This document shows positions 19,778 to 52,033 of a stretch of 64,000 bases of DNA, one piece after another. The stretch comes from Escherichia phage SD2, in sequence record PQ821640; one strand, 5' to 3'. The notes beneath the pieces are model-generated. The model worked only from the letters and a program-made list of their open reading frames with translations, had not been told where the DNA came from and ran no database searches. The position numbers and the translations under genes were made by a program. Numbering within the stretch: position 1 is the first letter of the stretch; each line of letters begins with the position of its first letter.

Positions 19778-22552
19778 TTAGTTTACCAGTTTATTTATGT
19801 CTGGTAAAAGATTTATTTCACCTAAGAAATCACCTTCACCTTCCTCTAGCCAACTTTCATATGCTTGTGCATGATTATAGTTACCATCAAAAGAATCTGC
19901 AACAAATTTTTCTACAGTTTTTCGAGATGTGCCAGCGCCAAATACACCAAGTTTAATACCATTGATCGGTAAAGTGGTGCTTGTGGGTACTTTCTCTGTT
20001 GCAACACGGTTGATATCTATAATCTCCTGTACGGTTGTATTCCATTGTAAGCATTTAACACAACGGGTGTGCGCTACATACAGTAGGTTTCGCTCTGCCT
20101 CTTCTAGTCCTACCCATTCACCAGTCTTTTTATCATAGTTGGAAGGAAAATCATTAGCAACAATAACCTGATCCCACTCCAAACCTTTAGACTTATGTGC
20201 TGTAGTCAGTGTGACTTTTGCTGTAGGAGAATTTCTATGCGTTCTAAGTGTATGTGCTATAGTGTTTGCCTTACCAGAAACTACAATGTTTAACAAGCGT
20301 TTAGCATCTGGATCAGCCTCTGCACACTCAACAAATTCATTCCAGTCTGCGTAAGGTAATACAGTTTCATGTTTTACTTTCTCAATATCTCCTCTTCGAA
20401 GAGCATTAACACTATCTACCATAGAGATAAAATCCCTGGTATCTACGTTAATAATAATTTCTTCCCCATCTGCAATACGATCCATTGCCTCCATAAGCAA
20501 GGTTAAATTCTTGCGAAAGATGATAGTGTAAGGTTTTGTATAGTCTACAACATCTGATTTGTAGCTACCTACTACAGTATCAAAGCCTTTACCAACCAAA
20601 GGATGACGCAAAGGTTCTTTATCACTTAAAATCATATTCGCAATGTTTGCCACTTTGGGGCCAAAACGGAAGCAAGCAGTTAATGGAAGCTCTGCCCCAT
20701 ACTTAGCTGTTTCAATCATCATATTAGAGCTACCTCTAAATTGATAAATGCAGTTATGGCTAAGAATTTCATTGCCAAAGAAGTTAGCAGTATCCTCTAC
20801 TTCAATATCATAATAGATACCATCACTATCTACAATGTCCACAATTTCTTCTGCCGTTACAGTATCACCATCTTTTACCAATACAGACATGCCTTTAAAC
20901 AAACCCGCTGCCGGAATTAAATTATATTTGGCGGTGTTCACAGAGGACATGCATTCTTTTAAAGATGCAAACGGAACTATTTCAAGGATCTTTTGTGCAA
21001 AACTCAATGCTTCACGATAAGAGTTGAAATATTTACGTACACGGTAACGACCTTCCAATTTAGCAACACTCACGCTTACACCTGCTTCAATGAGTGAAGC
21101 ATAGATTGGCATTTCACTTTCTGTCCACTCAAAGCTAACTTGTGTTCCTTTACAACTTTGTGCTCGCAAAGTCACTGTTAACATTTTTCTTTCATCTACT
21201 GCACAATTGATGCTGTGCCAGTGTGGATAAGCAAAATGATAATCTTTATCCTCTAAAAGTTTAAAACCATTTTGTCCGAATTGTTCAAAGATGTTGTTGA
21301 TTCTTTCTTGATTAATACCGCGTGAACTTGCTTCAAATACACAAGTAGGAATGCCATATTGTAAACTGTATGCCATTTCTTTTTCCATAGCAGCTTCACG
21401 GTTTTCAACAATATCCAACACCCATAACTTCTGTGCTTTTTCAGAACGTGTACGTTGCCCCAGTTTAGAAAAACCTTCTTTATCATCGAATTTGTTAGTG
21501 ATCCCTACTCGGAAGCCTAAATCTTTTCTCCACATTAGGTATACCACCATCTGATCATCTTTCAGAACATAAGGTGAAGCCCAAATACGATGGTTATGTG
21601 TCATATCTAAAGTCTTACCTTTAGCAGTAATAACATTCCTACCTTTTGTACGTGTAGATAAAGTCTTATTTGTTACTTTTCTAAATGTAACTTTACCGTT
21701 AGAATAAGACTCTACCTTATCACCTATTTGCAGGTCTTTCATTGTAACCTGACCATTTTCGGTATTAAGTACCGTGTTTTCTGACACACATTGGAATTCA
21801 TCACCAACTACCACAATTTGTTTTGCAGATTTAGCATTTCGCAGAATAGACAAGAATGCAGGGTTAACATCCTGGAATTCATCCCCAAAAATAATGTCAT
21901 AACCAAGATCAGCACCAGACAATTCAAACAATTTTACATAGGTGTCGTGCGTCATCAAAGTATCTGTGTTAGGGTCAATGCGCTCTCGCCACAATTGTTT
22001 TGCATACTTAACTACTTCTGTAATTAGTTTGTGTTCGTTAATACCTTTTCTTTTAATATCTGCAAGATGTACACTAGGAAAATGTTTACGGCTGATAAAA
22101 GGATCATCCGAAAATTCAAACTTACCTACGGTTTGCTTGATCATTAAACCAATCATAGCACGAGTTAAAAGTGTTTTCCCTCGTTTATCAATAAGATTAT
22201 TAATCTTAAATTTCTTTGCTATCTCACTACCTGTACCTGCAACGTTAACATACTGTCCTTCTGGTCGGGACAGTTTTGCACGTAAACGATGATCCAGGAA
22301 TTGATAGCAAATGGAATGCAATGTACGGCATTCTACATTTGGTGGCATCTTACGCCGTGCTTCTTCTGCCATGCTTTTATTGAAAGCTAAGTAAAGAATG
22401 CGATCTTCTGTACTGTTAGCCAGCAAATAAAGTGTTGACGTTTTTCCTGATCCAGATTTAGCTTGGATAGTTAAAAACCGATGATCTGGAAAAGCCTCCT
22501 TAATAGCTGTTTGCTCTTCTGTTGGAGTAAAACTCAACTCTTTCTTAGCCAT
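19778..22552 (-). CDS. UvrD-like SF1 DNA helicase interrupted by an intein
   Basis: Start at MAKKELSF (RBS AAGAGAGG); Walker A AKSGSGKTS, motif II IIFGDEFQDV; motif III GDEFQ / CIYQFRG is split by a 346-aa insertion. Confidence 0.8.
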   Translation of the reverse strand: MAKKELSFTPTEEQTAIKEAFPDHRFLTIQAKSGSGKTSTLYLLANSTEDRILYLAFNKSMAEEARRKMPPNVECRTLHSICYQFLDHRLRAKLSRPEGQYVNVAGTGSEIAKKFKINNLIDKRGKTLLTRAMIGLMIKQTVGKFEFSDDPFISRKHFPSVHLADIKRKGINEHKLITEVVKYAKQLWRERIDPNTDTLMTHDTYVKLFELSGADLGYDIIFGDEFQDVNPAFLSILRNAKSAKQIVVVGDEFQCVSENTVLNTENGQVTMKDLQIGDKVESYSNGKVTFRKVTNKTLSTRTKGRNVITAKGKTLDMTHNHRIWASPYVLKDDQMVVYLMWRKDLGFRVGITNKFDDKEGFSKLGQRTRSEKAQKLWVLDIVENREAAMEKEMAYSLQYGIPTCVFEASSRGINQERINNIFEQFGQNGFKLLEDKDYHFAYPHWHSINCAVDERKMLTVTLRAQSCKGTQVSFEWTESEMPIYASLIEAGVSVSVAKLEGRYRVRKYFNSYREALSFAQKILEIVPFASLKECMSSVNTAKYNLIPAAGLFKGMSVLVKDGDTVTAEEIVDIVDSDGIYYDIEVEDTANFFGNEILSHNCIYQFRGSSNMMIETAKYGAELPLTACFRFGPKVANIANMILSDKEPLRHPLVGKGFDTVVGSYKSDVVDYTKPYTIIFRKNLTLLMEAMDRIADGEEIIINVDTRDFISMVDSVNALRRGDIEKVKHETVLPYADWNEFVECAEADPDAKRLLNIVVSGKANTIAHTLRTHRNSPTAKVTLTTAHKSKGLEWDQVIVANDFPSNYDKKTGEWVGLEEAERNLLYVAHTRCVKCLQWNTTVQEIIDINRVATEKVPTSTTLPINGIKLGVFGAGTSRKTVEKFVADSFDGNYNHAQAYESWLEEGEGDFLGEINLLPDINKLVN
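20753..21790 (-). mobile_element. intein (about 346 aa) inside helicase motif III
   Basis: Insertion begins with Cys (CVSENTVL, Hint block A-like) and ends SHN followed by Cys (+1); flanking exteins reconstitute GDEFQCIYQFRG. Confidence 0.75.
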
Positions 22553-26007: not shown

Positions 26008-26274
26008 CTAATTACTGTTAGATCTGTACTCTGTCTTCCATTCACAATGGTAAACTTCAACAGGTTCTAACTTCCAGTGTTCAGGAACTAGTTCAGGACA
26101 ATATCTACAAAAGAGAAATAGATAGATAACTAAGACAGGTATTAAATAGTAAAATGGTATACGATCATAACCATACTTACGAGATAACATGTAGACATAT
26201 AGATAGGGTATAACAATTAATCCTATAACTATAAGTAAGAAGAGAAGTATAAACCTTAGTGTAGTAACATCCAT
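26008..26274 (-). CDS. small membrane protein
   Basis: ORF track 88 aa, two TM segments. Confidence 0.45.
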   Translation of the reverse strand: MDVTTLRFILLFLLIVIGLIVIPYLYVYMLSRKYGYDRIPFYYLIPVLVIYLFLFCRYCPELVPEHWKLEPVEVYHCEWKTEYRSNSN

Positions 26275-26293
26275 AGTATTCTCCTATACAGTA

Positions 26294-26413
26294 ATATACT
26301 CTGTTCCTGCCCCTCCATGAGTGACAGGAACAATATCTATAGAGAATACTAACTCGCTTCGCTCGTCACCTTTCAGGTTTAGGGTAGCATGTTTTTCTGA
26401 AAAAGTCAATACT
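26294..26413 (+). repeat. conserved noncoding element, copy A (hairpin + CTCGCTNTCGCTCG + TTAGGGTAGCATGTTTTT + GAAAAGT)
   Basis: About 70-120 bp shared with 51664-51760 in the same orientation; intergenic. Confidence 0.5.
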
Positions 26414-26438: not shown

Positions 26439-26711
26439 TTACATAGGTACAACAGAGTCTGTTTTGAAGTCGTACATATGATTTACACCTGTGATTTTTG
26501 ACATAGAGATTGCACGTTTAGCACCTGCAATTACCTGGTCTGTCTTCTTAATCTCTTCACGGAACTTACGTACAGTTAGAGAGAAGAAACGATGATCCAT
26601 CCATTGACGATTCACACGATCACGCTTGAAGTGACGGAAATCTTCAATCTGTTTATTGCGCAATCGGCGCAGTACATGCAATAATTTATAGTAAGGGTGT
26701 TTATTTTTCAT
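26439..26711 (-). CDS. hypothetical basic protein
   Basis: ORF track 90 aa. Confidence 0.45.
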   Translation of the reverse strand: MKNKHPYYKLLHVLRRLRNKQIEDFRHFKRDRVNRQWMDHRFFSLTVRKFREEIKKTDQVIAGAKRAISMSKITGVNHMYDFKTDSVVPM

Positions 26712-32955: not shown

Positions 32956-33129
32956 TTCATGTACGGAAATTCACCCTCTGAATAATATATTCAGAGTAAA
33001 TATTATTTTGTACTCTGTTAATAAATTATTTAATTTGTTTGTTGGATTATGATATCTGGTTTTTAAAAGGCATACTATCTCTTAACTACTACTTATAACA
33101 GAACAGTAAAATCATTTTTATAAAAAGGA

Positions 33130-33340
33130 CAAAATTATTTAAAGTTTTTACAGATTTTTGGATACAAATTTTGAAAATGAAAAGTTCAAGTTTGGTCAAA
33201 ATTATTTAAAGTTTTTGTATGTATTTCTATCCAGATTTTGAAAATGAAAACTTCAATTTTTTAAAAATTCCCCAGTTTATTTAAAGTTTTTTTACCTTTT
33301 TCCGTAGAAAAATCAAAAATGAAAAGTTCAATTTCGTGTT
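33130..33340 (+). repeat. three tandem ~68-70 bp repeats (ATTTAAAGTTTTT ... ATTTTGAAAATGAAAAGTTCAA)
   Basis: Direct repeat units at about 33130, 33198 and 33266; each contains the inverted repeat TTGAA..TTCAA. Confidence 0.6.
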
Positions 33341-33349
33341 TTTATGGGT

Positions 33350-33470
33350 ATGCGTATGATAATCATTCTCATTTGTAAATGAGAATCATTATCATTTAAT
33401 TATGTAAATGATAAGCATTCTCACTAAGAGAATGAGAATCATTAGCAAATGAGAATTTTTCTCATTTGCA
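33350..33470. promoter_or_regulatory. cluster of at least 4 Fur-box-like palindromes
   Basis: ATGATAATCATTCTCATT, AATGAGAATCATTATCATT, AATGATAAGCATTCTC, AATGAGAATCATTAGCAAATGAGAA versus Fur consensus GATAATGATAATCATTATC. Confidence 0.45.
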
Positions 33471-34464: not shown

Positions 34465-34524
34465 TTGACACTGAAAAATAATTTGGTAATATATACTCCA
34501 TAAGGCGGGAAATGGTTTCCCGCC
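34465..34524 (+). promoter_or_regulatory. cassette 2: promoter TTGACA + hairpin GGCGGGAAATGGTTTCCCGCC
   Basis: Consensus -35, TG-extended -10; canonical hairpin core. Confidence 0.65.
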
Positions 34525-34546
34525 AAAACAAAGAAAGGGTAACACA

Positions 34547-34909
34547 ATGAGCAAGCAAATCAATACTATCATGTTAAACCTGGTATCTTTCCGCGATGAC
34601 GTGAAAAACCTTTCGCGTGATGCAGTGGATGCACGGATCGAAAGCTATCGCACACAGATCGCAACGTTACCGCTGAAACGTGATCAACATGCCGCTAATA
34701 TGATGCTTGATGCTATGATTAAAAAGATGATTCAATGTGATCTTACCCTGGCTTATGAATATGCTGGCGATCTCTTTGTAACATATAGCAAGCCCGTTCC
34801 AGGTATGAGCACCACGGAAGAATTGCATGCCTTAAATCTGCGACAAGATGCATGGGATAACATGCGCCGTGTTATGGTATGGGTAGAAAGCGGTAAAATT
34901 TACGAATAA
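34547..34909 (+). CDS. hypothetical protein (cassette 2)
   Basis: ORF track 120 aa; RBS AAGAAAGGG. Confidence 0.55.
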   Translation: MSKQINTIMLNLVSFRDDVKNLSRDAVDARIESYRTQIATLPLKRDQHAANMMLDAMIKKMIQCDLTLAYEYAGDLFVTYSKPVPGMSTTEELHALNLRQDAWDNMRRVMVWVESGKIYE

Positions 34910-34915
34910 AAACGG

Positions 34916-34969
34916 TTGACATTGCACTAAAACCTGATAAGCTATCTTAAAGCGGGAATTGTTCCCGCT
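34916..34969 (+). promoter_or_regulatory. cassette 3: promoter TTGACA + hairpin AGCGGGAATTGTTCCCGCT
   Basis: Hairpin variant preserves pairing. Confidence 0.55.
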
Positions 34970-34987
34970 TACATAGGATAAAACTTT

Positions 34988-35134
34988 ATGAAACAATATG
35001 TAATGAGTATTCATACCAAAAACGGCGCTACTGTTACGACTCCGGCACGGTTTGCACTTGTAAACCGTTGCAAGAGACTAAAACGAGAGTTAAAAAATAA
35101 CCGTGCAACGGGCTTTAAACGCTGGGGAGGATAA
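34988..35134 (+). CDS. small basic protein (cassette 3, ~48 aa)
   Basis: Manual ORF; stop is followed by GGAGG and the TTG start of the next gene; approximate. Confidence 0.4.
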   Translation: MKQYVMSIHTKNGATVTTPARFALVNRCKRLKRELKNNRATGFKRWGG

Positions 35135-35136
35135 TC

Positions 35137-35397
35137 TTGTTTTTTCTAAAAGTTTTTGATAATGTGATCGCTTTTGAACATGCTACAACGTTCGACCTGG
35201 CGAGATACGCTATCAGGTTTAAAGATAATGTTTATCCCCGTGCTGGCGGCGGTTACACTATTTTTAATCATCGCAACGCGCAACTGACTGATGTAACTAA
35301 TCCAGATCCTGGAGTGTATCGCATAGGCTGGCTACCGTCAAAAGACGCGGCAAGCATGTTTAAGTTATGTAAACTACTAACAGAAGAGGCGAACTAA
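35137..35397 (+). CDS. hypothetical protein (TTG start)
   Basis: ORF track 86 aa; TTG start 6 nt after GGGGAGGA. Confidence 0.5.
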   Translation: MFFLKVFDNVIAFEHATTFDLARYAIRFKDNVYPRAGGGYTIFNHRNAQLTDVTNPDPGVYRIGWLPSKDAASMFKLCKLLTEEAN

Positions 35398-35398
35398 C

Positions 35399-35953
35399 AT
35401 GGGGCGTGAATATGTGATCCAGTCCTGGGTAAAGCATGACGCAAATGATCCGCGCATAATACCAGATGACATGATCGATCACATGGTGGGGTATAGCGGG
35501 GAGCAGATAGGAAATCGAGCGGCAAAGAGCAACGGCAACACCAGAACGAGATCCGTTCGCCCTGGATGGCTGGCAAATGGTAACGCTGACATTGCAAGCG
35601 CCGCAGATCCAAGCGATGACGCTAAAAATAATCCCTTGTATAACATTGATCCGGCTTTTAAGGTGTTGGAAGAGTATCCCGCTAAATTAGCCGCACTAGA
35701 TAAAGCATACGAAGAAAAACGGGTGGCATGGACTGTATACAACACCGCTAAAATGGTGCTAGATGCAAAATTGATTAAAGCCCAGGAGAAGATCAATAAA
35801 CTTGTTACCATAGCGCAAGAGGAAGACCAGGACGACCAGGAGGAAGAGGAAGAAATCATGCCTATCCTGGAAGAGGAAGAGATCCAGCCATACATGCCGA
35901 CGGAAGAGGAAAAAAGACAAGCCTTAAAAAATTATAAAAATTGTATTGTGTAA
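35399..35953 (+). CDS. hypothetical protein with acidic D/E-rich C-terminal region
   Basis: ORF track 184 aa; RBS GAAGAGG. Confidence 0.55.
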   Translation: MGREYVIQSWVKHDANDPRIIPDDMIDHMVGYSGEQIGNRAAKSNGNTRTRSVRPGWLANGNADIASAADPSDDAKNNPLYNIDPAFKVLEEYPAKLAALDKAYEEKRVAWTVYNTAKMVLDAKLIKAQEKINKLVTIAQEEDQDDQEEEEEIMPILEEEEIQPYMPTEEEKRQALKNYKNCIV

Positions 35954-35956
35954 GGC

Positions 35957-36013
35957 TTGACATATGCAAACAAGCCCCGTAATATGTACCACATAGAGCG
36001 GGGCAACGCCCCA
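35957..36013 (+). promoter_or_regulatory. cassette 4a: promoter TTGACA-17-TAATAT + hairpin GAGCGGGGCAACGCCCC, no ORF directly after
   Basis: Followed ~20 nt later by a second promoter; possible short leader or small RNA. Confidence 0.5.
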
Positions 36014-36034
36014 TAAGGTGAAATAAAAAATCAC

Positions 36035-36062
36035 TTGACACCTGAAATCAGTAAGCTATAAT
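36035..36062 (+). promoter_or_regulatory. cassette 4b: consensus promoter TTGACA-16-TATAAT
   Basis: Exact -35 and -10 hexamers. Confidence 0.65.
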
Positions 36063-36099
36063 GCTTATATAAATTAAAGCGTTACTAAGGAATAAAATC

Positions 36100-36465
36100 A
36101 TGGCTAAAAATATTAATGTTTCTGCTTATGCTACCCTGGCTAATACTGCTAAAATTGAACTATCCAGCATTGAAGCGGTACATATTAGCGCCCGTCGCTG
36201 GTTTCAAAAGTCTTATGGTAATACTTATTTCTCTTTGATGGTTGACGTTGAGATCGGCGGTAAACTGATTGAAGTCGTTAACGTTCCGTTTCATTATGGT
36301 TATGGTGATCATTTTGATACCGTTGCCCTGGAAGAGTTTAGCAAGGTTATCAACCTGGAAGGTAAAGAGTTTTCAAATTATGCTTATCTTTCCCGTTTTT
36401 GCCGTGATAATGGGATCGCTGTATACAGTCATGCAAGCGATGTTAAACGTAAAAAAGATTTATAA
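36100..36465 (+). CDS. hypothetical protein
   Basis: ORF track 121 aa. Confidence 0.55.
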   Translation: MAKNINVSAYATLANTAKIELSSIEAVHISARRWFQKSYGNTYFSLMVDVEIGGKLIEVVNVPFHYGYGDHFDTVALEEFSKVINLEGKEFSNYAYLSRFCRDNGIAVYSHASDVKRKKDL

Positions 36466-36469
36466 AAAG

Positions 36470-36535
36470 CATTGACAGCACGAATAAAAAGAGTAAAATG
36501 TTTCATATCAGGACGGGGGAACGGTTTCCCCTCCT
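36470..36535 (+). promoter_or_regulatory. cassette 5: promoter TTGACA + hairpin GGACGGGGGAACGGTTTCCCCTCC
   Basis: Hairpin variant with altered stem that still pairs. Confidence 0.55.
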
Positions 36536-36554
36536 AACAAAGAGAGAAATAAAA

Positions 36555-36737
36555 ATGGCTAAATGCACTATTTGTAAGAAAGAAATAGTATTAGTTCCAA
36601 GCGCCCGTGAACGTGCCGCTAAGTTCGGTGGCAAACCGTCAGACTATACGAAAATGTTTACTACCCATGCAGCTTGTCAAGTAGCAAAACGTTCACAAGA
36701 AAGCGTAGAATTAATGCGTAAACTTTCCAAAAAATAA
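36555..36737 (+). CDS. small protein MAKCTICKKE... (cassette 5)
   Basis: Start at Met20 of track ORF, after hairpin and RBS AAGAGAGAAA. Confidence 0.5.
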   Translation: MAKCTICKKEIVLVPSARERAAKFGGKPSDYTKMFTTHAACQVAKRSQESVELMRKLSKK

Positions 36738-36741
36738 GTAT

Positions 36742-36803
36742 TGACAAAGTATTTTATTACTATATAATGGTTTACATCGAGAGCGGGAATAGTTCCCGCC
36801 TCA
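36742..36803 (+). promoter_or_regulatory. cassette 6: promoter TTGACA-16-TATAAT + hairpin GAGCGGGAATAGTTCCCGCCTC
   Basis: Consensus boxes. Confidence 0.65.
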
Positions 36804-36823
36804 CTGAAAAAGAGATTAACATC

Positions 36824-37063
36824 ATGGCTAAATCTAAAATGTACAACGGTCACAAAAATAAAACTCATTGGAATGTAAGCCTTTGGATTAATAACGATCC
36901 AGGTTTTTATAATATGGCAAAAGAATTTATAGCCGTGAACAACAATAAAGATAACGCCGCGCGTGAAATGATGTCATTACTTAACGAAATGGGCCAAAAT
37001 ACTACGCCAGATGGCTATAAATTCAGTAAAACCAGTATCCGCGCCGCTATGGTAGGAATGTAA
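36824..37063 (+). CDS. hypothetical protein (cassette 6)
   Basis: Start at MAKSK, Met20 of track ORF. Confidence 0.5.
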   Translation: MAKSKMYNGHKNKTHWNVSLWINNDPGFYNMAKEFIAVNNNKDNAAREMMSLLNEMGQNTTPDGYKFSKTSIRAAMVGM

Positions 37064-37072
37064 TAAAAGCAG

Positions 37073-37132
37073 TTGACAACGTTTTTTAATCTGGTATAGT
37101 TTATCACATAGGGCGGGAAATGGTTTCCCGCC
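37073..37132 (+). promoter_or_regulatory. cassette 7: promoter TTGACA + TGgTATAGT extended -10 + hairpin GGGCGGGAAATGGTTTCCCGCC
   Basis: Canonical hairpin. Confidence 0.65.
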
Positions 37133-37154
37133 AAATGAAAGAAAGGTTATCATT

Positions 37155-37382
37155 ATGGCTATCGTTATTGTTCGCGTATCCGGCACGGTTGGAATCTCCC
37201 AGGTAGTAGCAGTTATCACCGAGAAGAAAGGGGATGATCTTCACTCCTCCTTGAATAGCTGGGCGGTCGCTAATTTCGGGCAATGGTCGAGCGTTGAGTA
37301 TATCGAATCCTACCAGGTGCCAACGATTAGCCTAACCGATCTGAATGTTGATCGCTTATTGTGCCTGGATGGATTAAACTAA
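37155..37382 (+). CDS. hypothetical protein (cassette 7)
   Basis: ORF track 75 aa. Confidence 0.55.
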   Translation: MAIVIVRVSGTVGISQVVAVITEKKGDDLHSSLNSWAVANFGQWSSVEYIESYQVPTISLTDLNVDRLLCLDGLN

Positions 37383-37390
37383 AAATAATC

Positions 37391-37448
37391 TTGACAAGAT
37401 AACTAAAATCAGTAAAATGTAATGCATAGGGCGGCAATAGTGCCGCTC
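37391..37448 (+). promoter_or_regulatory. cassette 8: promoter TTGACA + hairpin GGGCGGCAATAGTGCCGCTC
   Basis: Hairpin identical to cassette 1. Confidence 0.6.
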
Positions 37449-37469
37449 ATAGTAAGAGAGATTATCAAA

Positions 37470-37685
37470 ATGGCTAATATCCGCACACTGTTAAAAAATG
37501 CAAGTCAAGTTTTATTTTCAGATGACGAGTATTTCAACAAAGACATTACAGGCGTGAAAAATTTAAAAGACGTGAAGGATGTTATCGGTATCCGTGGATC
37601 TTTACGTAAAGGTGACATATACGGTAACAAGGTGCAATATAAACTATCAAAAGATTATGATTTTACTTTGACAATTATTTCATAA
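37470..37685 (+). CDS. hypothetical protein (cassette 8)
   Basis: Start at MANIRT, Met17 of track ORF. Confidence 0.5.
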   Translation: MANIRTLLKNASQVLFSDDEYFNKDITGVKNLKDVKDVIGIRGSLRKGDIYGNKVQYKLSKDYDFTLTIIS

Positions 37686-37691
37686 AACTAC

Positions 37692-37752
37692 TTGCAAACC
37701 TGGTAAAATAAAGTAAACTATATTCATTAAGGCGGTGGAATAGCCCACCGCC
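37692..37752 (+). promoter_or_regulatory. cassette 9: promoter-like TTGCAA + hairpin GGCGGTGGAATAGCCCACCGCC
   Basis: Stem differs from canonical copy on both arms (GGTGG / CCACC) and still pairs. Confidence 0.5.
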
Positions 37753-37775
37753 TAACAAAGAGAAGAGGAAACATC

Positions 37776-37946
37776 ATGATCACTTTCGCTACCCGTGAAG
37801 CCGCTCGCAACGTTGCACGTAAAGTTAACGCCGCCAACCTGGGCGCTACGCTTAAAGCCCCGGTGAAAGATGAATCAGGAAAATGGATCTTTCCTGGTCT
37901 GCGTCACGCTGATAAGCTGGGGACATTAACGTTAAAAAATAAATAA
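37776..37946 (+). CDS. small protein ~56 aa (cassette 9)
   Basis: Manual ORF, RBS AAGAGGAAA; approximate. Confidence 0.4.
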   Translation: MITFATREAARNVARKVNAANLGATLKAPVKDESGKWIFPGLRHADKLGTLTLKNK

Positions 37947-37953
37947 TATCCGC

Positions 37954-38020
37954 TTGACAGTAGCATCATTTATAAGTAAAGTAACAACAACGGCGGGAAA
38001 ATTATTGGTTATATATTGCA
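37954..38020 (+). promoter_or_regulatory. cassette 10: promoter TTGACA + degenerate hairpin remnant (GGCGGGAAAATTATTGG)
   Basis: Hairpin 3' arm lost. Confidence 0.4.
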
Positions 38021-38076
38021 AGCATGATCATAACTTTGGCAAAATATCATAACGTAGCGTAATCGAGAGGAAAAAC

Positions 38077-38214
38077 ATGAACGCATCACAGCAGATCGAA
38101 AAATTCAACCGCAGCAAGGCGCGTAAAAATTGGAACGAAGAGATCACCAAGAAAGGCGATAAGCGGAACAAAACAAAAAGAGATCGCAGCACAAAAAGAC
38201 ACTGGAACGAATAA
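38077..38214 (+). CDS. very basic 45-aa protein (K/R-rich)
   Basis: Manual ORF MNASQQIEKFNRSKARKNW...; RBS GAGAGGAAAAA; followed by terminator; approximate. Confidence 0.4.
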   Translation: MNASQQIEKFNRSKARKNWNEEITKKGDKRNKTKRDRSTKRHWNE

Positions 38215-38216
38215 CA

Positions 38217-38245
38217 AAAAGGGCGCAATAAGCGCCCTTTTAGCT
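38217..38245 (+). terminator. rho-independent terminator
   Basis: AAAAGGGCGCAATAAGCGCCCTTTT. Confidence 0.7.
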
Positions 38246-38332
38246 TATATAGAGGCTTGTTACCCATAGGCAATGGTAACGCCAGGGCAAGCCTATAAAT
38301 CAACGTTAGACGGCTTTACAGGAGCTTTAAAA

Positions 38333-38515
38333 ATGAGATTAGAAGAAATAAGCAAGGCACTAGCCCAGGGGCAAAGGTTATGCGCCCGATATCGTGATCA
38401 ATATGGCTTTATAACTAGCGGCGTGATCCTGGGGATTGAAGGCAATAAAATTTTTATTGACACGTTGAAAAACGTTGTATATAGTGACAATATAATCTCA
38501 ATAAAACATATATGA
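38333..38515 (+). CDS. hypothetical protein
   Basis: Start at MRLEEISK after AGGAG RBS, within track ORF 38273-38515. Confidence 0.45.
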   Translation: MRLEEISKALAQGQRLCARYRDQYGFITSGVILGIEGNKIFIDTLKNVVYSDNIISIKHI

Positions 38516-38523
38516 GGCAAGAA

Positions 38524-38925
38524 ATGAAAAAATTATTGATCGCTGGTTTAATCTCTTTTGGCATGGTTGGAACATCTAGCGCGGCGATATCCTCCACAGT
38601 AGCAGAATTAAGCGCCGTTGATGCAATGGAAAACGTCATGATCATTAATAACGCGATCCCCGATGAAATCATGGAGGATTCACACATGATCGCTTATGGT
38701 GCTGTTACACAATTAACGGCAAAAATAGATAAATCTATTGTTAATGGCTTAAATGAAGATGTACCATGTGAAATTATTACCAGTGTGCTAACGACTCAAA
38801 ATTTTACGCCGTGGCTAAAAAGTATTCAAAAGGTACACAGCACCGCCGCAGATCGTAGCAATGAAAAACTAGTGTCAGCACTTGCAACGTATACCCTAGC
38901 AAAATGTACCGAGATAAAAGGTTGA
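38524..38925 (+). CDS. secreted protein with signal peptide
   Basis: MKKLLIAGLISFGMVGTSSAA signal peptide; RBS GAGG. Confidence 0.5.
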   Translation: MKKLLIAGLISFGMVGTSSAAISSTVAELSAVDAMENVMIINNAIPDEIMEDSHMIAYGAVTQLTAKIDKSIVNGLNEDVPCEIITSVLTTQNFTPWLKSIQKVHSTAADRSNEKLVSALATYTLAKCTEIKG

Positions 38926-38949
38926 CAATATAGAAAGCACGTTATAAGA
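38922..38949 (+). promoter_or_regulatory. promoter TTGACA-16-TATAAG (no hairpin)
   Basis: Sigma70-like boxes upstream of 38971 ORF. Confidence 0.5.
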
Positions 38950-38970
38950 TACACAACAAAGGAGAACCAC

Positions 38971-39273
38971 ATGAACGGCATAGCTAAAACGTTTTTTCTT
39001 TTTTCTGGTGTAAATGATCCATCAATAAAAGTCGATAGTGTAAAAGAAAACAATACTATCACCGCTAAATTGTTTCAAGATGAAACAAATAACGTGCTAA
39101 TCATTAATCTTAAAGAAATAACGAAAGGTTATTATACTATTGCTTACCATGCGATCTATCATGCGGGTACTAGTGAGGAAGTGCAAACAAGCAACAACGA
39201 AAGCGCGGCGCTACCTGGTGATCTGGTGCTGGGCGTTATCAGTTTAATTGTCAATGATTTTTTTAAGGAGTAA
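38971..39273 (+). CDS. hypothetical protein
   Basis: ORF track 100 aa; RBS AAGGAGAA. Confidence 0.55.
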   Translation: MNGIAKTFFLFSGVNDPSIKVDSVKENNTITAKLFQDETNNVLIINLKEITKGYYTIAYHAIYHAGTSEEVQTSNNESAALPGDLVLGVISLIVNDFFKE

Positions 39274-39277
39274 AACC

Positions 39278-39373
39278 ATGCCCTATTTACATTTATTTTT
39301 CGGTATCTTATTGACAGGATCTTTTTTCTTCTGTATGCTTGTTTCTATTGTAAACCACGTTTTAAGACATTAA
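39278..39373 (+). CDS. tiny hydrophobic peptide (~31 aa)
   Basis: Manual ORF MPYLHLFFGILLTG...; approximate. Confidence 0.25.
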   Translation: MPYLHLFFGILLTGSFFFCMLVSIVNHVLRH

Positions 39374-39382
39374 GGAAACAGC

Positions 39383-39502
39383 ATGAAAATTATTCCCGTA
39401 CAGTATAGCGTAATAAATCCAGCATATGAGGAAGGAAGGAAAACAAGCATGGCTTTATGTTGTATTACTACTATAGCCATGTTATTATATATTGTGTTTT
39501 AA
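39383..39502 (+). CDS. tiny hydrophobic peptide (~39 aa)
   Basis: Manual ORF MKIIPVQYSV...CCITTIAMLLYIVF; approximate. Confidence 0.25.
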   Translation: MKIIPVQYSVINPAYEEGRKTSMALCCITTIAMLLYIVF

Positions 39503-39531
39503 TAGGTTTTATAGTTGTACGCTTTAAAGGC

Positions 39532-39560
39532 TTGACAATTTTTTGTTATGCTTTAAAATA
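39532..39560 (+). promoter_or_regulatory. promoter TTGACA + TAAAAT
   Basis: Followed by mini-hairpin CGGCAAAGGCCG. Confidence 0.45.
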
Positions 39561-39602
39561 TATCTTGAAAACGGCAAAGGCCGCAAACAAAAGGGTAAAA
39601 TT

Positions 39603-39926
39603 ATGAAATCTGTGATCGGTGTTTATTTGGATAACTCTGATTTTTTCTATCATCGTGCGCGTTTCCTTGATGCGATTGAAATGATAGAATCAGGCTTTAA
39701 AGAGTATCGCCTTGCACATGATGACCTGGAAGCATTACAGGGCAATAGTGTTTTTACATTGCAAGCTAAAGCACTATGTAAAAGCCGGATCGACATTGCG
39801 AGCAAAAAGATAGAACGCGGCATGTCCTGGTTACGCACCGCAGAAATTAACATGGGGCAATGGTACGGCGAAAACTTAGAAAATAAACTCACTTTTGTAA
39901 ATGTAGAAAATCTTAAAGATTATTGA
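39603..39926 (+). CDS. hypothetical protein
   Basis: Start at MKSVIG, Met21 of track ORF. Confidence 0.5.
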   Translation: MKSVIGVYLDNSDFFYHRARFLDAIEMIESGFKEYRLAHDDLEALQGNSVFTLQAKALCKSRIDIASKKIERGMSWLRTAEINMGQWYGENLENKLTFVNVENLKDY

Positions 39927-39989
39927 TTGACAGCACGCCTGATAAGGAGTATATTGTATCTCATAGAGCGGGGAAATGGTTTCCCCGCC
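39927..39989 (+). promoter_or_regulatory. cassette 11: promoter TTGACA + hairpin AGCGGGGAAATGGTTTCCCCGCC
   Basis: Hairpin variant with one extra G-C pair. Confidence 0.6.
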
Positions 39990-40008
39990 TTAACAGAAGA
40001 GATAAGAT

Positions 40009-40293
40009 ATGAAAATCACAAAAGCACTTTTCAACTATGCAGCACGTCGCGGATTATGCTTATCCGTTGAAAATTTAGGAAAAGAAGATTTTTTGTGCTT
40101 TTGGGAGCTTGAGAATGATAATGAGTGGATCTTCTCTTATTCTATCTGCAAAGATCAAAATGGTTGCTTGTTAACCTGGCACGGTAATATCTATTTGCCG
40201 GAAGAAATAAAACAAGAATTACCAGGCACGATCATGACTGAGAAACAGCTTAAGGAAGTGATCAATTTTGTAAGGCAAAACATTAAAAAATAA
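40009..40293 (+). CDS. hypothetical protein (cassette 11)
   Basis: ORF track 94 aa. Confidence 0.55.
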   Translation: MKITKALFNYAARRGLCLSVENLGKEDFLCFWELENDNEWIFSYSICKDQNGCLLTWHGNIYLPEEIKQELPGTIMTEKQLKEVINFVRQNIKK

Positions 40294-40294
40294 T

Positions 40295-40355
40295 TTGACA
40301 GTAGGCAAACAACGTAGTAAAGTTTACCACATAGGGCGGGAAATGGTTTCCCGCC
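40295..40355 (+). promoter_or_regulatory. cassette 12: promoter TTGACA + hairpin GGGCGGGAAATGGTTTCCCGCC
   Basis: Canonical hairpin. Confidence 0.65.
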
Positions 40356-40373
40356 AGAATAGAGAGAACTAAA

Positions 40374-40478
40374 ATGATTATTCTTACCATGATGTGCGCG
40401 GCGGTTATTATTCCTTTGATAACGCTTATTGTTTCTGAGATCGATGATCTTCTCTTTGAAAGAAGTTTAAAAAAGTAA
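40374..40478 (+). CDS. tiny membrane peptide (~34 aa, cassette 12)
   Basis: Manual ORF MIILTMMCAAVIIPLITLIVSE...; approximate. Confidence 0.35.
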   Translation: MIILTMMCAAVIIPLITLIVSEIDDLLFERSLKK

Positions 40479-40540
40479 TTGACAACGGCTAATAAGCTGA
40501 TAATATGTATCACATAGGGCGGGGCAATAAGGCAACGCCC
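40479..40540 (+). promoter_or_regulatory. cassette 13: promoter TTGACA-TAATAT + hairpin GGGCGGGGCAATAAGGCAACGCCC
   Basis: Hairpin variant with enlarged loop. Confidence 0.55.
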
Positions 40541-40558
40541 ACTAATGAGGGTAGCATC

Positions 40559-40663
40559 ATGTTAGAGAAAATTTTCACGGTTGTAATAGTGGGCCTGGCG
40601 TTATCGGTTGGAGTGATTGCAACTATGGCTAACATGATCCTATCTTCCCACGGTATCGGCTAA
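40559..40663 (+). CDS. tiny membrane peptide (~34 aa, cassette 13)
   Basis: Manual ORF MLEKIFTVVIVGLALSVGVIATMANMI...; approximate. Confidence 0.35.
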   Translation: MLEKIFTVVIVGLALSVGVIATMANMILSSHGIG

Positions 40664-40677
40664 AAGAGAAACACAAC

Positions 40678-41064
40678 ATGAAAACAGAAATCATTATTGA
40701 AATCATCAACGGTTATAAAGAAGCCTTTATTTTTGCTGAATCAGCAAGGGATCATGAAGGTAATTTTATTGATAACTTAGACGATTATGATTTTTCAGAT
40801 CAAGCCCATCAACGGATCATTAATGACGTAGCGGCTTATTGTGATGCCAATGATGCTGCTATCTCTGAGGCAATGAGCGACGGCGCAACAGCAAACCAGA
40901 TCGGGAATGATTTACATTTTACCCGTAACGGTCACGGCGTAGGTTTTTGGGATCGCCCTGAAATATACACTACTAACACCGCCAACCGCCTAACAAATGC
41001 AGCTAGATTAATGCCATCGGTGCATGCTTACATTGGTGAAGATAATTTGATTTATATTGAATAA
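40678..41064 (+). CDS. hypothetical acidic protein
   Basis: ORF track 128 aa. Confidence 0.55.
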   Translation: MKTEIIIEIINGYKEAFIFAESARDHEGNFIDNLDDYDFSDQAHQRIINDVAAYCDANDAAISEAMSDGATANQIGNDLHFTRNGHGVGFWDRPEIYTTNTANRLTNAARLMPSVHAYIGEDNLIYIE

Positions 41065-41070
41065 AAAGTG

Positions 41071-41129
41071 TTGACACCGATCCCCAATATGGTATTATTT
41101 ACCACGTAGGCGGGAAATGGTTTCCCGCC
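41071..41129 (+). promoter_or_regulatory. cassette 14: promoter TTGACA + hairpin GGCGGGAAATGGTTTCCCGCC
   Basis: Canonical hairpin. Confidence 0.65.
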
Positions 41130-41153
41130 AGGTAATCAAAAAAGGTAAACATT

Positions 41154-41543
41154 ATGCGCAACCTGATTTCTGTTTCTAACGTTGAAAAATTTCAATCCTT
41201 GCAGGGTATCATTAACAACGTAGCGCCTTTTTTAGTCAATGGCTTGATTGCAAAGATGAAAAATAAACATCATGCGGCATGGTCTGCTTATTGCTTTGAT
41301 AATGATGAAAAAGCGGCTGAAATGATGTTAAATATGCTTTTGGATAGTGTAGAATCATCTTTACCGGAAAACATCGCAGAAGAGATCACCTATCGTTATA
41401 ATATGGCGATCACTTACCAGGAGGTTGCGCAATTCAACATGATGGATGATGACGAACAACAGGATCAAGAAATGTTCTGGGAGTATGCAGATCGTCAATC
41501 GGCTTTTGATGAAAAGTTAGCGATGTATTATAACGAATATTAA
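41154..41543 (+). CDS. hypothetical protein (cassette 14)
   Basis: ORF track 129 aa. Confidence 0.55.
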   Translation: MRNLISVSNVEKFQSLQGIINNVAPFLVNGLIAKMKNKHHAAWSAYCFDNDEKAAEMMLNMLLDSVESSLPENIAEEITYRYNMAITYQEVAQFNMMDDDEQQDQEMFWEYADRQSAFDEKLAMYYNEY

Positions 41544-41557
41544 TACACGGTAAAAGA

Positions 41558-41585
41558 AAGGGGCGCACTAAGCGCCCTTTTTTGT
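41558..41585 (+). terminator. rho-independent terminator
   Basis: AAAGGGGCGCACTAAGCGCCCTTTTTTTG. Confidence 0.7.
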
Positions 41586-41861
41586 ATTCTTTTTTCACGA
41601 TGGAAACAACACGTAAAGAATAGGCGTAAAGGTGGCGTAAAACAGCCTAAAACCGATTATAACCGCTTAAACAAGGTAGGGATGATTAATCACCTTACCA
41701 GGATGAAAAAGCCGTTATAAAGCTATCTAGAGCGTTTAAAGCACATAGGAAATAATTTGCTTTTTATCTTGCCTTTTATTCTGCTTTTGATTATTATTAT
41801 GGAACGGGCGGCACCTGGGAGCAGGGGAAGATAATCACCGGACGATCTTATTATATATTGA

Positions 41862-41880
41862 TAGCTTCCACCTATCAAAC
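41862..41880. promoter_or_regulatory. inverted repeat TGATAGCTTCCACCTATCA
   Basis: 6-bp arms TGATAG/CTATCA; second copy at 42753. Confidence 0.4.
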
Positions 41881-41928
41881 AACAAAACATTAAAGAAATA
41901 AACTATCAAATCTTTACAATCTCACCTA

Positions 41929-41987
41929 TTGACACCGGATCGCCCTTATACTAAGATGTATCACGTAGGCGGGAAGTGGTTTCCCGC
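41929..41987 (+). promoter_or_regulatory. cassette 15: promoter TTGACA-TATACT + hairpin GGCGGGAAGTGGTTTCCCGC
   Basis: Hairpin variant. Confidence 0.6.
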
Positions 41988-42006
41988 TCAATATAGGAAT
42001 CATATC

Positions 42007-42939: not shown

Positions 42940-43020
42940 TCTTAAATGATAATCATTCTTATTTATAGCTGATTATTTATGCAATAAACTGAATAATGTA
43001 ATAATGATAATCATTCTTAA
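42940..43020. promoter_or_regulatory. two Fur-box-like sites (AAATGATAATCATTCTTAT; ATAATGATAATCATTCTTAA)
   Basis: 14-16 of 16-18 positions match Fur consensus. Confidence 0.45.
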
Positions 43021-43844: not shown

Positions 43845-43865
43845 GCAAATGATAATCATTATCAG
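43845..43865. promoter_or_regulatory. Fur-box-like site GCAAATGATAATCATTATCAG
   Basis: 16/17 match to GATAATGATAATCATTATC. Confidence 0.5.
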
Positions 43866-51159: not shown

Positions 51160-51384
51160 ATGAAGTCTGTAAACAAGTTGCAACAATTTTTGTTATCAAC
51201 AGCAATCTTTTTGCTTTTGTTAATTGGTATTCTGTATGGTGCATCTAACTTATACAATCTACACAACAATGTAGAACATAACATAGAGAAGTGCACCATT
51301 CTAAAACACAATAAACAAGCAGAAGATTTCTTAAAGAATAAATGTTACAACTACATTGATTATGAGGAGACAAATAATGATTAA
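51160..51384 (+). CDS. small membrane protein (paralog of 46451 product)
   Basis: ORF track 74 aa; RBS AAGGAGGG. Confidence 0.5.
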   Translation: MKSVNKLQQFLLSTAIFLLLLIGILYGASNLYNLHNNVEHNIEKCTILKHNKQAEDFLKNKCYNYIDYEETNND

Positions 51385-51619
51385 AGAATTAGGCATGCGA
51401 GTATACAGTGAGTGGACTCCAAGCAATGGCCCAGGAGTTGTTGCAGCTAAGTGTATCAATGGTCGTATTGAGTACCTGGAAGGTTATGAAGATAATGAAG
51501 AGTTAGTAGATTATGCTAAATCTTTTATTGAAGATGATACAGACTTTATTGTATTATATGATACAGGAGAGTTAGAGTATGGATATGATGGAGATGGGGA
51601 TATCTTTGAACTTCAATAA
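51377..51619 (+). CDS. hypothetical acidic protein
   Basis: Start at MIKELG after GAGGAG. Confidence 0.5.
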   Translation: MIKELGMRVYSEWTPSNGPGVVAAKCINGRIEYLEGYEDNEELVDYAKSFIEDDTDFIVLYDTGELEYGYDGDGDIFELQ

Positions 51620-51663
51620 GAGTAGTAAGTAAGATATAAAGAGTGTATAGTTAGTAACATTAC

Positions 51664-51760
51664 ATATACTCTTTCCATGTATAACATGGAATATTCTCTA
51701 CCTCGCTATCGCTCGGTATATAAGATTAGGGTAGCATGTTTTTTACGAAAAGTAAAACTG
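51664..51760 (+). repeat. conserved noncoding element, copy B
   Basis: Shares hairpin + CTCGCTATCGCTCGG + TTAGGGTAGCATGTTTTTT + GAAAAGT with 26294-26413. Confidence 0.5.
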
Positions 51761-51814: not shown

Positions 51815-52033
51815 TTGTACAAATTATATAAAGCAAAAGATAAGTTTACGGGTAATACATCTGGTTTCTATGTAACACCTCGTGGTGTTGCTGTGTTCGA
51901 TTGGATCTCTGGTACTCCAGATCGTGAAATGATCTCTCTTGTAAAACTGTCGGAACAAGAGTACACTTACGGTGACATTACAACATTCTATTCTCGTGCA
52001 GAAAATCCAAAACTGATCGCGGAGTGGGAATAA
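51815..52033 (+). CDS. hypothetical protein (TTG start)
   Basis: ORF track 72 aa; TTG start after GAGGAG. Confidence 0.45.
   Translation: MYKLYKAKDKFTGNTSGFYVTPRGVAVFDWISGTPDREMISLVKLSEQEYTYGDITTFYSRAENPKLIAEWE

Follow-up and report, generated by a model that had tools for sequence, protein, structure and literature searches.

Two intergenic intervals in a 64,000-nucleotide stretch of Escherichia phage SD2 DNA (sequence record PQ821640; hereafter the window), at positions 26294-26413 (copy A) and 51664-51760 (copy B), share a noncoding element that is real, conserved and unannotated. Judging by its anatomy, we consider it reasonably likely that both copies belong to a class of promoters, acting on the minus strand, that is joined to a conserved hairpin at the 5' end of the RNA. 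The window comes from a phi92-like coliphage (Justusliebigvirus, subfamily Stephanstirmvirinae), and more than 50 genomes of such coliphages match the copy A region at 98-99% identity. An earlier examination of the letters alone (the sequence-only reading) had noted that the element occurs twice in the same orientation and in opposite gene contexts. The sequence and the strands of the open reading frames (ORFs) confirm this: in the ORF list, copy A is flanked by two minus-strand genes (26439..26711 and 26008..26274), and copy B by two plus-strand genes (51356..51619 and 51815..52033).

The two copies stand out clearly from the rest of the window. The sequence TTAGGGTAGCATGTTTTT is identical at 26379-26396 (copy A) and 51726-51743 (copy B), with no third match in the window even when three mismatches are allowed (0.10 expected by chance). 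A profile search of the window returned copies A and B and no others, as did a covariance-model search with filters off, in which the next-best match had E = 0.4. The search for further copies proposed in the sequence-only reading thus gave none more in the window, and it gave a third copy outside the window in each of the two whole genomes scanned. A transfer RNA (tRNA) or a known RNA family was considered and rejected: a tRNA scan of the window found none, an Rfam scan of the window gave no gathering-level match, and Rfam matches at both loci with E up to 10 were chance-level at best (23 bits or less versus a gathering score of 86). No feature is given at either locus in the richly annotated phi92 record, the GenBank records of phi92-like and phAPEC8-like phages are empty there, and the literature searched for the motif yielded nothing.

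Related phages, in which the lack of a similar element was part of the refuting condition named in the sequence-only reading, do carry it. Distant BLAST matches place the core in Phapecoctavirus (phAPEC8, ZCKP1 and phiWec181), in Klebsiella phages KP13-26 and FKP3, and in Citrobacter phage Tr1. Covariance-model and genome scans detected three copies in each of two whole genomes. We conclude that three syntenic copies, which we call types A, B and C, are present per genome throughout the subfamily Stephanstirmvirinae. Type A, represented by copy A, lies between minus-strand genes and heads a conserved gene for an 88-amino-acid membrane protein. Type B, represented by copy B, lies between plus-strand genes, always directly before the homologue of gp024. 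Type C is found beyond the window, where a divergent intergenic region adjoins a prs-like gene (phi92 gp106A/gp107); in contig L051 it occupies 40508-40587 (about 140.1 kilobases (kb) in the VEcB record and 47.8-48.1 kb in phi92), between gp106A and the prs-like/NAMPT-like pair (gp107/gp108), and is aimed at the pair. The A and B contexts recur in the same orientation in KP13-26, Tr1, phAPEC8-like phages and metagenomic relatives; hence the arrangement is conserved and no chance feature of the window genome. The type A context is also found in Campylobacter phage B15 (a Phapecoctavirus genome), and the type C context in Tr1 and two metagenomic relatives. In two metagenomic relatives, a gene of 71-85 amino acids separates the type C promoter from its downstream genes.

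The analyses below use 25 distinct copies from at least four lineages, and hairpin statistics were calculated on 19 sequences. For some of the metagenomic and IMG/VR copies, the search pattern itself demanded TACCCT; the remaining copies were found by similarity searches alone. Among the matches listed from loose pattern scans of IMG/VR and the metagenomes, most were chance matches, and filtered matches alone were used.

When read on the minus strand, all 25 copies have one layout: a -35 hexamer, a spacer of 17-18 base pairs (bp), (C/T)ATG(C/G), TACCCT, an A, 11-15 variable bases, and CGAGC-loop-GCGAG, which we refer to as box 1. The -35 hexamer is TTGAC(T/A) in 19 of the 25, and TTTACT or TTGATT in some type B copies. 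The spacer is variable in sequence; the -35 hexamer, the 17-18-bp spacing, the TG at -15/-14 and TACCCT are kept. Both TG and TACCCT are invariant in every copy retrieved by similarity alone, and position -13 is a C except in three distinct copies (phAPEC8, ZCKP1 and their B15 orthologue), so that TG(C/G)TACCCT is present in all copies. The hexamer retains T-12, A-11 and T-7. In copy A, a TTGACT at 26404..26409(-), which matches the -35 consensus at five of six positions, is followed 17 bp further on by TGC and TACCCT (26381..26389(-)). In copy B, the -35 hexamer is a weaker TTTACT (51751..51756(-); four of six positions; TTTACT, TTGACT or TTGATT in type B copies), and the extended -10 at 51728..51736(-) again follows at 17 bp. 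Standard sigma-70 geometry would place the start at the seventh base past the hexamer, where a purine follows pyrimidines in nearly all copies; the predicted starts are a G at 26374(-) for copy A and an A at 51721(-) for copy B.

The pattern TTGAC-N18-TAnnnT is enriched in the window (24 matches versus 4.1 expected), its matches follow gene direction, and copy A is among them (26381-26409(-)). When cassette and gene directions were compared, copy A (the 88-amino-acid gene) and type C (the prs-like gene, in phi92, Tr1 and metagenomic relatives) were found to face a gene, and copy B to be antisense to both of its neighbours. The copies most likely carry a sigma-70 extended -10 promoter (TRTGn) that points leftwards. 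Like the sigma-70 extended -10 promoters (TRTGnTATAAT) of the early genes of many coliphages, the element combines a -35 TTGACT, a 17-18-bp spacer and TRTGn at -17 to -13, and the direction of types A and C agrees with the downstream gene. It differs from them by the invariant TACCCT and in that one of three copies opposes its neighbours. Neither copy was picked up by a generic promoter scanner, since TACCCT agrees with TATAAT at just three of six positions. The sigma-S-type -10 (KCTAYRCTTAA) resembles the element in C(-13) and C(-8), which we regard as a lead only. Two further exact 10-mers of the ATGCTACCCT/AGGGTAGCAT kind are present in the window, at 36129-36137 and 40548-40557, making four in 64 kb versus about 0.1 expected. 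As cassettes they were rejected: both are without box 1, and one lies in coding sequence (conserved in phAPEC8-like phages), the other at a ribosome-binding site.

The minus-strand layout changes how the blocks described in the sequence-only reading are to be understood. It had set out a plus-strand anatomy in which TTAGGGTAGCATG and AAGTCAAT were blocks; these are the reverse complements of the leftward extended -10 (TGCTACCCTAA) and of the -35 (TTGACT). Likewise, CTCGCT.TCGCTCG is no plus-strand block and is instead the complement of the minus-strand RNA hairpin. The letters themselves are as reported, apart from details: the box exists in both copies, and its supposed substitution is a one-base insertion or deletion (CTCGCTTCGCTCG versus CTCGCTATCGCTCG); the GAAAAGT..ACT block is also present in both copies, with a one-base difference in the length of the block.

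In the predicted transcript, box 1 starts at roughly +4 to +8. It has the form CGAGC-(GAUA/GAA/GCA/GGGA/GAAU/GGC)-GCGAG, that is, a C-G pair, tandem G.A and A.G, a G-C and a C-G pair, and a loop of 3-4 nucleotides (nt) that starts with G. In copy A (UGA-C-GA-GC-GAA-GC-GA-G-UUA) it occupies 26350..26368(-), within a covariance-model match at 26344-26374(-) (34.9 bits), and the DNA core is GCGAAGC; in copy B (UAC-C-GA-GC-GAUA-GC-GA-G-GUA) it occupies 51699..51718(-), within a match at 51693-51724(-) (36.1 bits), and the core is GCGATAGC. All 19 sequences have the tandem G.A, which is never replaced by Watson-Crick pairs. The stem is extended by three covarying bases on each side: the pair adjoining the box (columns 9-24) is C-G in 12 and A-U in 5 of the 19 sequences, and the third pair out (columns 7-26) is formed in every sequence, by five pair types. 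For covariation, the score was 0.326, compared with 0.152 for shuffled alignments (0 of 500 reached the observed value) and at most 0.178 with slid partners, a moderate level of support given just three variable pairs (two to five pair types each) in related sequences. Pairing is possible in 49 of 57 flank cells on the minus strand versus 35 of 57 on the plus strand, the minus strand doing better because of G.U pairs (15 of 57 cells). The structure prediction with covariation proposed in the sequence-only reading therefore came out in favor of a hairpin on the minus strand, and folding of the plus-strand core was insignificant (z = -0.28 and +0.42). Box 1 is identical across all collected type B copies, the most uniform of the three types.

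Copy A is predicted to act as an ordinary promoter with leader for the adjacent minus-strand gene at 26008..26274(-), which encodes the 88-amino-acid predicted membrane protein (MDVTTLRF...; ORF list). Every type A copy examined precedes the same gene, of 88-90 amino acids (MDV(M/T)T.RF...), including those of the KP13-26-like, Tr1-like and L287 relatives. For the minus-strand leader (26374 to 26262), the predicted folding energy is -37.1 kcal/mol (z = -4.65; 0 of 200 shuffles equally stable). In this fold, upstream leader sequence pairs with the Shine-Dalgarno AGGAG (26281-26285) and with the AUG (26272-26274) in a long helix (26272..26351(-)), which also contains an inner hairpin (hairpin 1, 26303-26331). 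Type A orthologues keep the box hairpin followed by a strong second hairpin before the Shine-Dalgarno sequence; according to the predicted folds, masking of the ribosome-binding site extends to the window genus and one other lineage, not to all.

Copy B probably yields an RNA of about 100 nt that is noncoding and antisense. Downstream of it, no conserved ORF is found on the minus strand, and the orientation of type B is antisense to the gp023 and gp024 homologues in every lineage examined, including contig L297. In the minimum-free-energy fold, box 1 of copy B appears as ((((..((....))..)))). The second hairpin of the predicted minus-strand RNA is hairpin 1 (TTCCATG...CATGGAA; 51673..51691), which on the plus strand scores as a weak terminator after gp023; at this position, all type B copies have a hairpin, of differing sequence. 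The promoter of copy B opposes gp023/gp024, and together with the weak plus-strand terminator this makes the region look like the meeting point of two convergent units. A third, AU-rich hairpin followed by UUUAUAUCUU (51640..51672(-)) was seen in folds of type B RNA and is a possible weak transcript end. In most phi92-like genomes the third hairpin has 10-11 bp, is AU-rich and is followed by UUUAUACC; the window genome is without 12 nt at about 51647 (AGTTAGTTATAG in phi92) present in every other phi92-like record, and its third hairpin is shortened. The sequence past the third hairpin is G-poor and C-rich, so that Rho could terminate the transcript of copy B. A genome terminus or pac site at copy B was also considered: the GenBank records of phages inny (MN850601) and JLBYU50 (OK272470) start within 8 nt of window positions 51600-51608, just before copy B, on different bases; direct terminal repeats of 317-342 bp are reported for this phage group, position not stated (PMC12210895, PMC11663894).

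These findings bear on the remaining claims of the sequence-only reading. Its statement that at least one copy is no conventional promoter leader for its neighbours holds for copy B, and copy A is the one predicted to be such a leader. Both a promoter and a small RNA (sRNA) gene were among its candidates; for a nicking site, also named, we found no evidence.

Several observations weigh against a sigma-70 promoter fused to an RNA hairpin. The TACCCT hexamer fits the -10 consensus at only half of its positions, and its absolute invariance, together with the near-constant C at -13, exceeds what plain sigma-70 recognition needs, which hints at an extra constraint. In copy B, the -35 is weak and there is no convincing intrinsic terminator (an AU-rich stem with a UUUAUA tail). 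About half of the distinct copies have a short palindrome that straddles the predicted start, which is absent from window copy B and others; its arms change in compensation (ACCT/AGGT, ACCC/GGGT, AACC/GGTT, AAAC/GTTT), and the promoter model leaves it unexplained because the left arm would not be transcribed. Since G.T is tolerated in DNA too, the strand asymmetry in pairing cannot separate RNA from the non-template DNA strand. Finally, in the literature searched, no transcript, start-site or polymerase-binding measurements for Stephanstirmvirinae were found.

We weighed four other explanations. One is that box 1 acts as DNA, in that a GCGNAGC/GCGNNAGC mini-hairpin folds when the promoter unwinds the strand and marks a priming or origin site of the R-loop type. 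Transcription-activated origins are exemplified by T4 oriF and oriG, T4 has multiple origins per genome, and the G4 primase site offers a parallel for priming. Indeed, 17 of 19 box variants fit GCGNAGC/GCGNNAGC, the motif lies on one strand only, beside a strand-opening site, the predicted RNA over the box is purine-rich with AT-rich sequence after it, and an orphan copy B would need no coding target. We know of no N4-type polymerase in this phage family. The motif is documented at the priming sites of G4, St-1 and alpha3, in RSF1010 ssiA and at N4 early promoters (PMC13037366), where the known elements act in single-stranded DNA with primases or the N4 virion polymerase; the present element has an extra GA/GA layer and a G.U-rich helix, and this invariant layer and the flank helix fit RNA better. 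Types A and C, moreover, sit exactly where ordinary promoters are needed, and the window holds a more conventional origin candidate in the form of three tandem repeats at 33.1-33.3 kb. We consider a DNA role of this kind unlikely. That TGCTACCCTAA, box 1 or both form the operator of a phage or host regulator, with a three-copy regulon and an incidental RNA hairpin, seems to us quite unlikely as well. It would account for the absolute conservation of the -10 region, well past promoter need, and for the dyad-like palindrome at the start site in half of the copies, and predicted transcription regulators (homologues of phi92 gp026/gp027) are encoded 0.8-1.2 kb to the right of copy B. The palindrome, however, varies in sequence and so provides no sequence-specific dyad, and several copies lack it; an inverted second -10 motif downstream is seen in one lineage only, with chance-level matches elsewhere; and box 1 is a mirror repeat rather than a dyad, with a flank helix whose covariation is not required of an operator.

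It is improbable, in our estimate, that copy B is the leftover of a duplicated promoter-leader whose gene was lost, firing weakly perhaps and having no function of its own. The lack of a downstream ORF and the weaker -35 would fit such a history, as would the presence of AGAGTATAT and ATGTTACTA, outside the core, in both copies A and B of this genus, a pattern that a duplication or gene conversion taking in the gene start would leave. Type B nevertheless keeps both its place before the gp024 homologue and its antisense orientation across all lineages examined, and its -10 is identical save for a single base, at -13, in phAPEC8 and ZCKP1. The flanks of type B genomes have diverged to the point of being unalignable, and a dead relic would have decayed; the uniformity of the type B box and its retention in every lineage argue in the same direction. 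We regard as most improbable a plus-strand element, whether an sRNA or leader running rightwards from TATACT or a binding or nicking site. In both window copies a TATACT (26295..26300 and 51665..51670) directly precedes a perfect hairpin, TTCCTG/CAGGAA at 26304-26309/26325-26330 and TCCATG/CATGGA at 51674-51679/51685-51690, exactly as the sequence-only reading described; copy B is embedded in plus-strand transcription, and its hairpin 1 is terminator-like on that strand. The further suggestion of a TATACT -10-like box does not hold up. It has no -35 partner and is missing from the KP13-26, Tr1 and phAPEC8 orthologues; in copy A it falls inside the minus-strand leader, in the interval from hairpin 1 to the Shine-Dalgarno sequence, and for copy B the type B alignment shows it not conserved in other genera. 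In addition to the insignificant folding of the core, a plus-strand box would hold tandem U.C mismatches with 22 of 57 flank cells unpaired, a plus-strand RNA at copy A would be antisense to all neighbouring genes, and small ORFs across the element are not conserved in frame.

Narrower candidates were also examined and rejected. A small protein or leader peptide is contradicted by ORFs that lie in differing frames and are open through single changes, and by spacer lengths that vary by non-multiples of three. An ATG-CTA-CCC-TAA mini-ORF within the -10 loses its stop in the phiWec181-like type A copies (contigs L186 and L230) and in contigs L261 and L272. As for a possible "hairpin 2" in the stretch that separates the -10 from box 1, stems of 4 bp form in only 9 of 19 distinct spacers, window copy B not being one of them, and it counts as a tendency rather than as part of the core. 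Pairing of box 1 with the TAGGGTAGC block fails because the middle of box 1 varies and the partner is invariant. Pairing in trans of copy A messenger RNA (mRNA) with plus-strand mRNA over copy B, as an explanation of their common orientation, was discarded as well, since A and B do not co-vary within genomes; in phAPEC8, for example, type B has GGGTACCAT and type A has GGGTAGCAT.

A promoter fused to a 5' RNA hairpin, our preferred reading, was compared with known systems in which a hairpin stands close to a transcript's start. The phage's own early promoters (TTGACA-N17-TATAGT) are followed within about 10 bases by the hairpin GGGCGGGAAATGGTTTCCCGCC, so a 5' hairpin is usual for the window genome. 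With these hairpins and with ompA-type 5' stabilisers, the element has in common a hairpin a few nucleotides past the start, repetition along with the promoter, and compensatory changes in the stem. It differs from ompA-type stem-loops in its invariant tip, with G.A pairs that are never Watson-Crick, which suggests recognition by a factor beyond mere end protection. Similarly to lambda nut and HK022 put sites, it places a small hairpin just past dedicated promoters, with few sites per genome in a fixed orientation, although this is an analogy at most: the element is without boxA (CGCUCUUA), without the 5-bp stem and GNRA-like pentaloop, and without the two-stem put architecture. Between the start and the hairpin, no boxA CGCUCUU(U)A was found in any copy, and the hairpin has a 2x2 G.A loop and a loop of 3-4 nt. 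A kink-turn was also sought; there is no three-nucleotide bulge, and the G.A pairs are in a symmetric 2x2 internal loop. Copy B alone can be likened to lambda OOP, which has its own promoter, lies between two opposite-strand genes and is aimed at the 3' end of the upstream gene. Unlike OOP, copy B has no strong intrinsic terminator, its overlap with gp023 depends on where the RNA ends, and the same promoter and hairpin also head two mRNAs.

If a promoter fused to a 5' hairpin is correct, host RNA polymerase with sigma-70 or a close variant would recognise the -35 hexamer, the TRTGn extended -10 at its 17-bp spacing, and TACCCT, and transcription would begin about 7 bases downstream of the -10. 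The first ~25 nt of RNA would then fold into a variable 3-bp stem, a C-G pair, tandem G.A/A.G, two G-C pairs and the 3-4-nt loop. The copy A and type C cassettes would head mRNAs, copy A driving the 88-amino-acid gene (26274..26008) via a strongly folded leader that masks the ribosome-binding site. Copy B would fire against its plus-strand neighbours, meet no ORF and give an RNA of about 100 nt with three hairpins, convergent with or antisense to the gp023-gp024 transcript. Most plausibly, box 1 would protect the 5' end, let a single RNA-binding regulator take hold of the three transcripts and so couple them, or both. A bolder version, which we put forward as a tentative and rather doubtful idea, makes the G.A hairpin the handle of a new phage circuit, in which one factor would act at three transcript 5' ends under a private promoter class (TGCTACCCT), with copy B as an antisense sRNA against gp023-gp024 or a decoy that titrates the factor; alternatively, replication or priming would be initiated at the three cassettes, as transcription-activated origins based on the GCGNAGC mini-hairpin.

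Box-like tips were also observed further afield. TGCTACCCTA precedes a box 1 hairpin in an 84-kb IMG/VR contig with a tRNA cluster (L196, 5851-5879), where the closing stem has 6 bp, and in a metagenome contig (L272, 3664), where the closing stem is GGGGG/CCCCC and TTGACA is present at -35. On the strength of these two contigs, the cassette may extend beyond Stephanstirmvirinae. Unrelated-looking contigs (L184-L201 and L250-L315, of about 6 kb from IMG/VR and metagenomes, and L218, L245 and L301) contain TACCCTATCCCCCCC(A/T)ACGAGCG(A/G)AGGCGAG or GTCATTCCGAGCGAAGCGAGGAATC, with the same CGAGCG-N-GCGAG tip and other closing stems. In these contigs the tip, a very stable one, has probably been put to use independently. 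Rfam gave no covering family on five contigs of this kind (L184, L196, L218, L245 and L301).

Other regulatory features were recorded in the window. The early promoter family lies on the plus strand at 34479-41988 (for example at 37056-37132, 40310-40355 and 41054-41129), with five copies of GGGCGGGAAATGGTTTCCCGCC at three or fewer mismatches, and GGGCGCAnTAAGCGCCC terminators are at 38221, 41561 and 42713. Near-consensus Fur boxes (GATAATGATAATCATTATC) gave six matches at three or fewer mismatches versus 0.08 expected, at 33375-33393, 33428-33446, 43000-43018, 43845-43863 (both strands) and 21232-21250. Their clustering in the divergent early region and at 43-44 kb suggests that the phage early promoters are touched by the iron regulation of the host. 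Three tandem repeats of 67-79 nt, 72-73% identical to the reference copy, occupy 33114-33334, where the leftward and rightward gene blocks meet, and are a candidate iteron-type origin or regulatory array.

Phi92-like and phAPEC8-like phages are widely isolated for therapy, and the analysis supplies a testable transcription map for them. The map comprises a proposed private promoter class with an invariant, non-consensus -10, a conserved RNA hairpin that is absent from Rfam, and three syntenic units, one of which is likely noncoding and antisense. Type C heads the prs-like/NAMPT-like pair, and co-regulation could bear on how the phage handles host metabolism. If the hairpin binds a factor, the two would form a new small RNA-protein recognition module; if no factor binds, the annotation would still be useful, and repeats found in the same orientation and in opposite gene contexts can be self-contained promoters.

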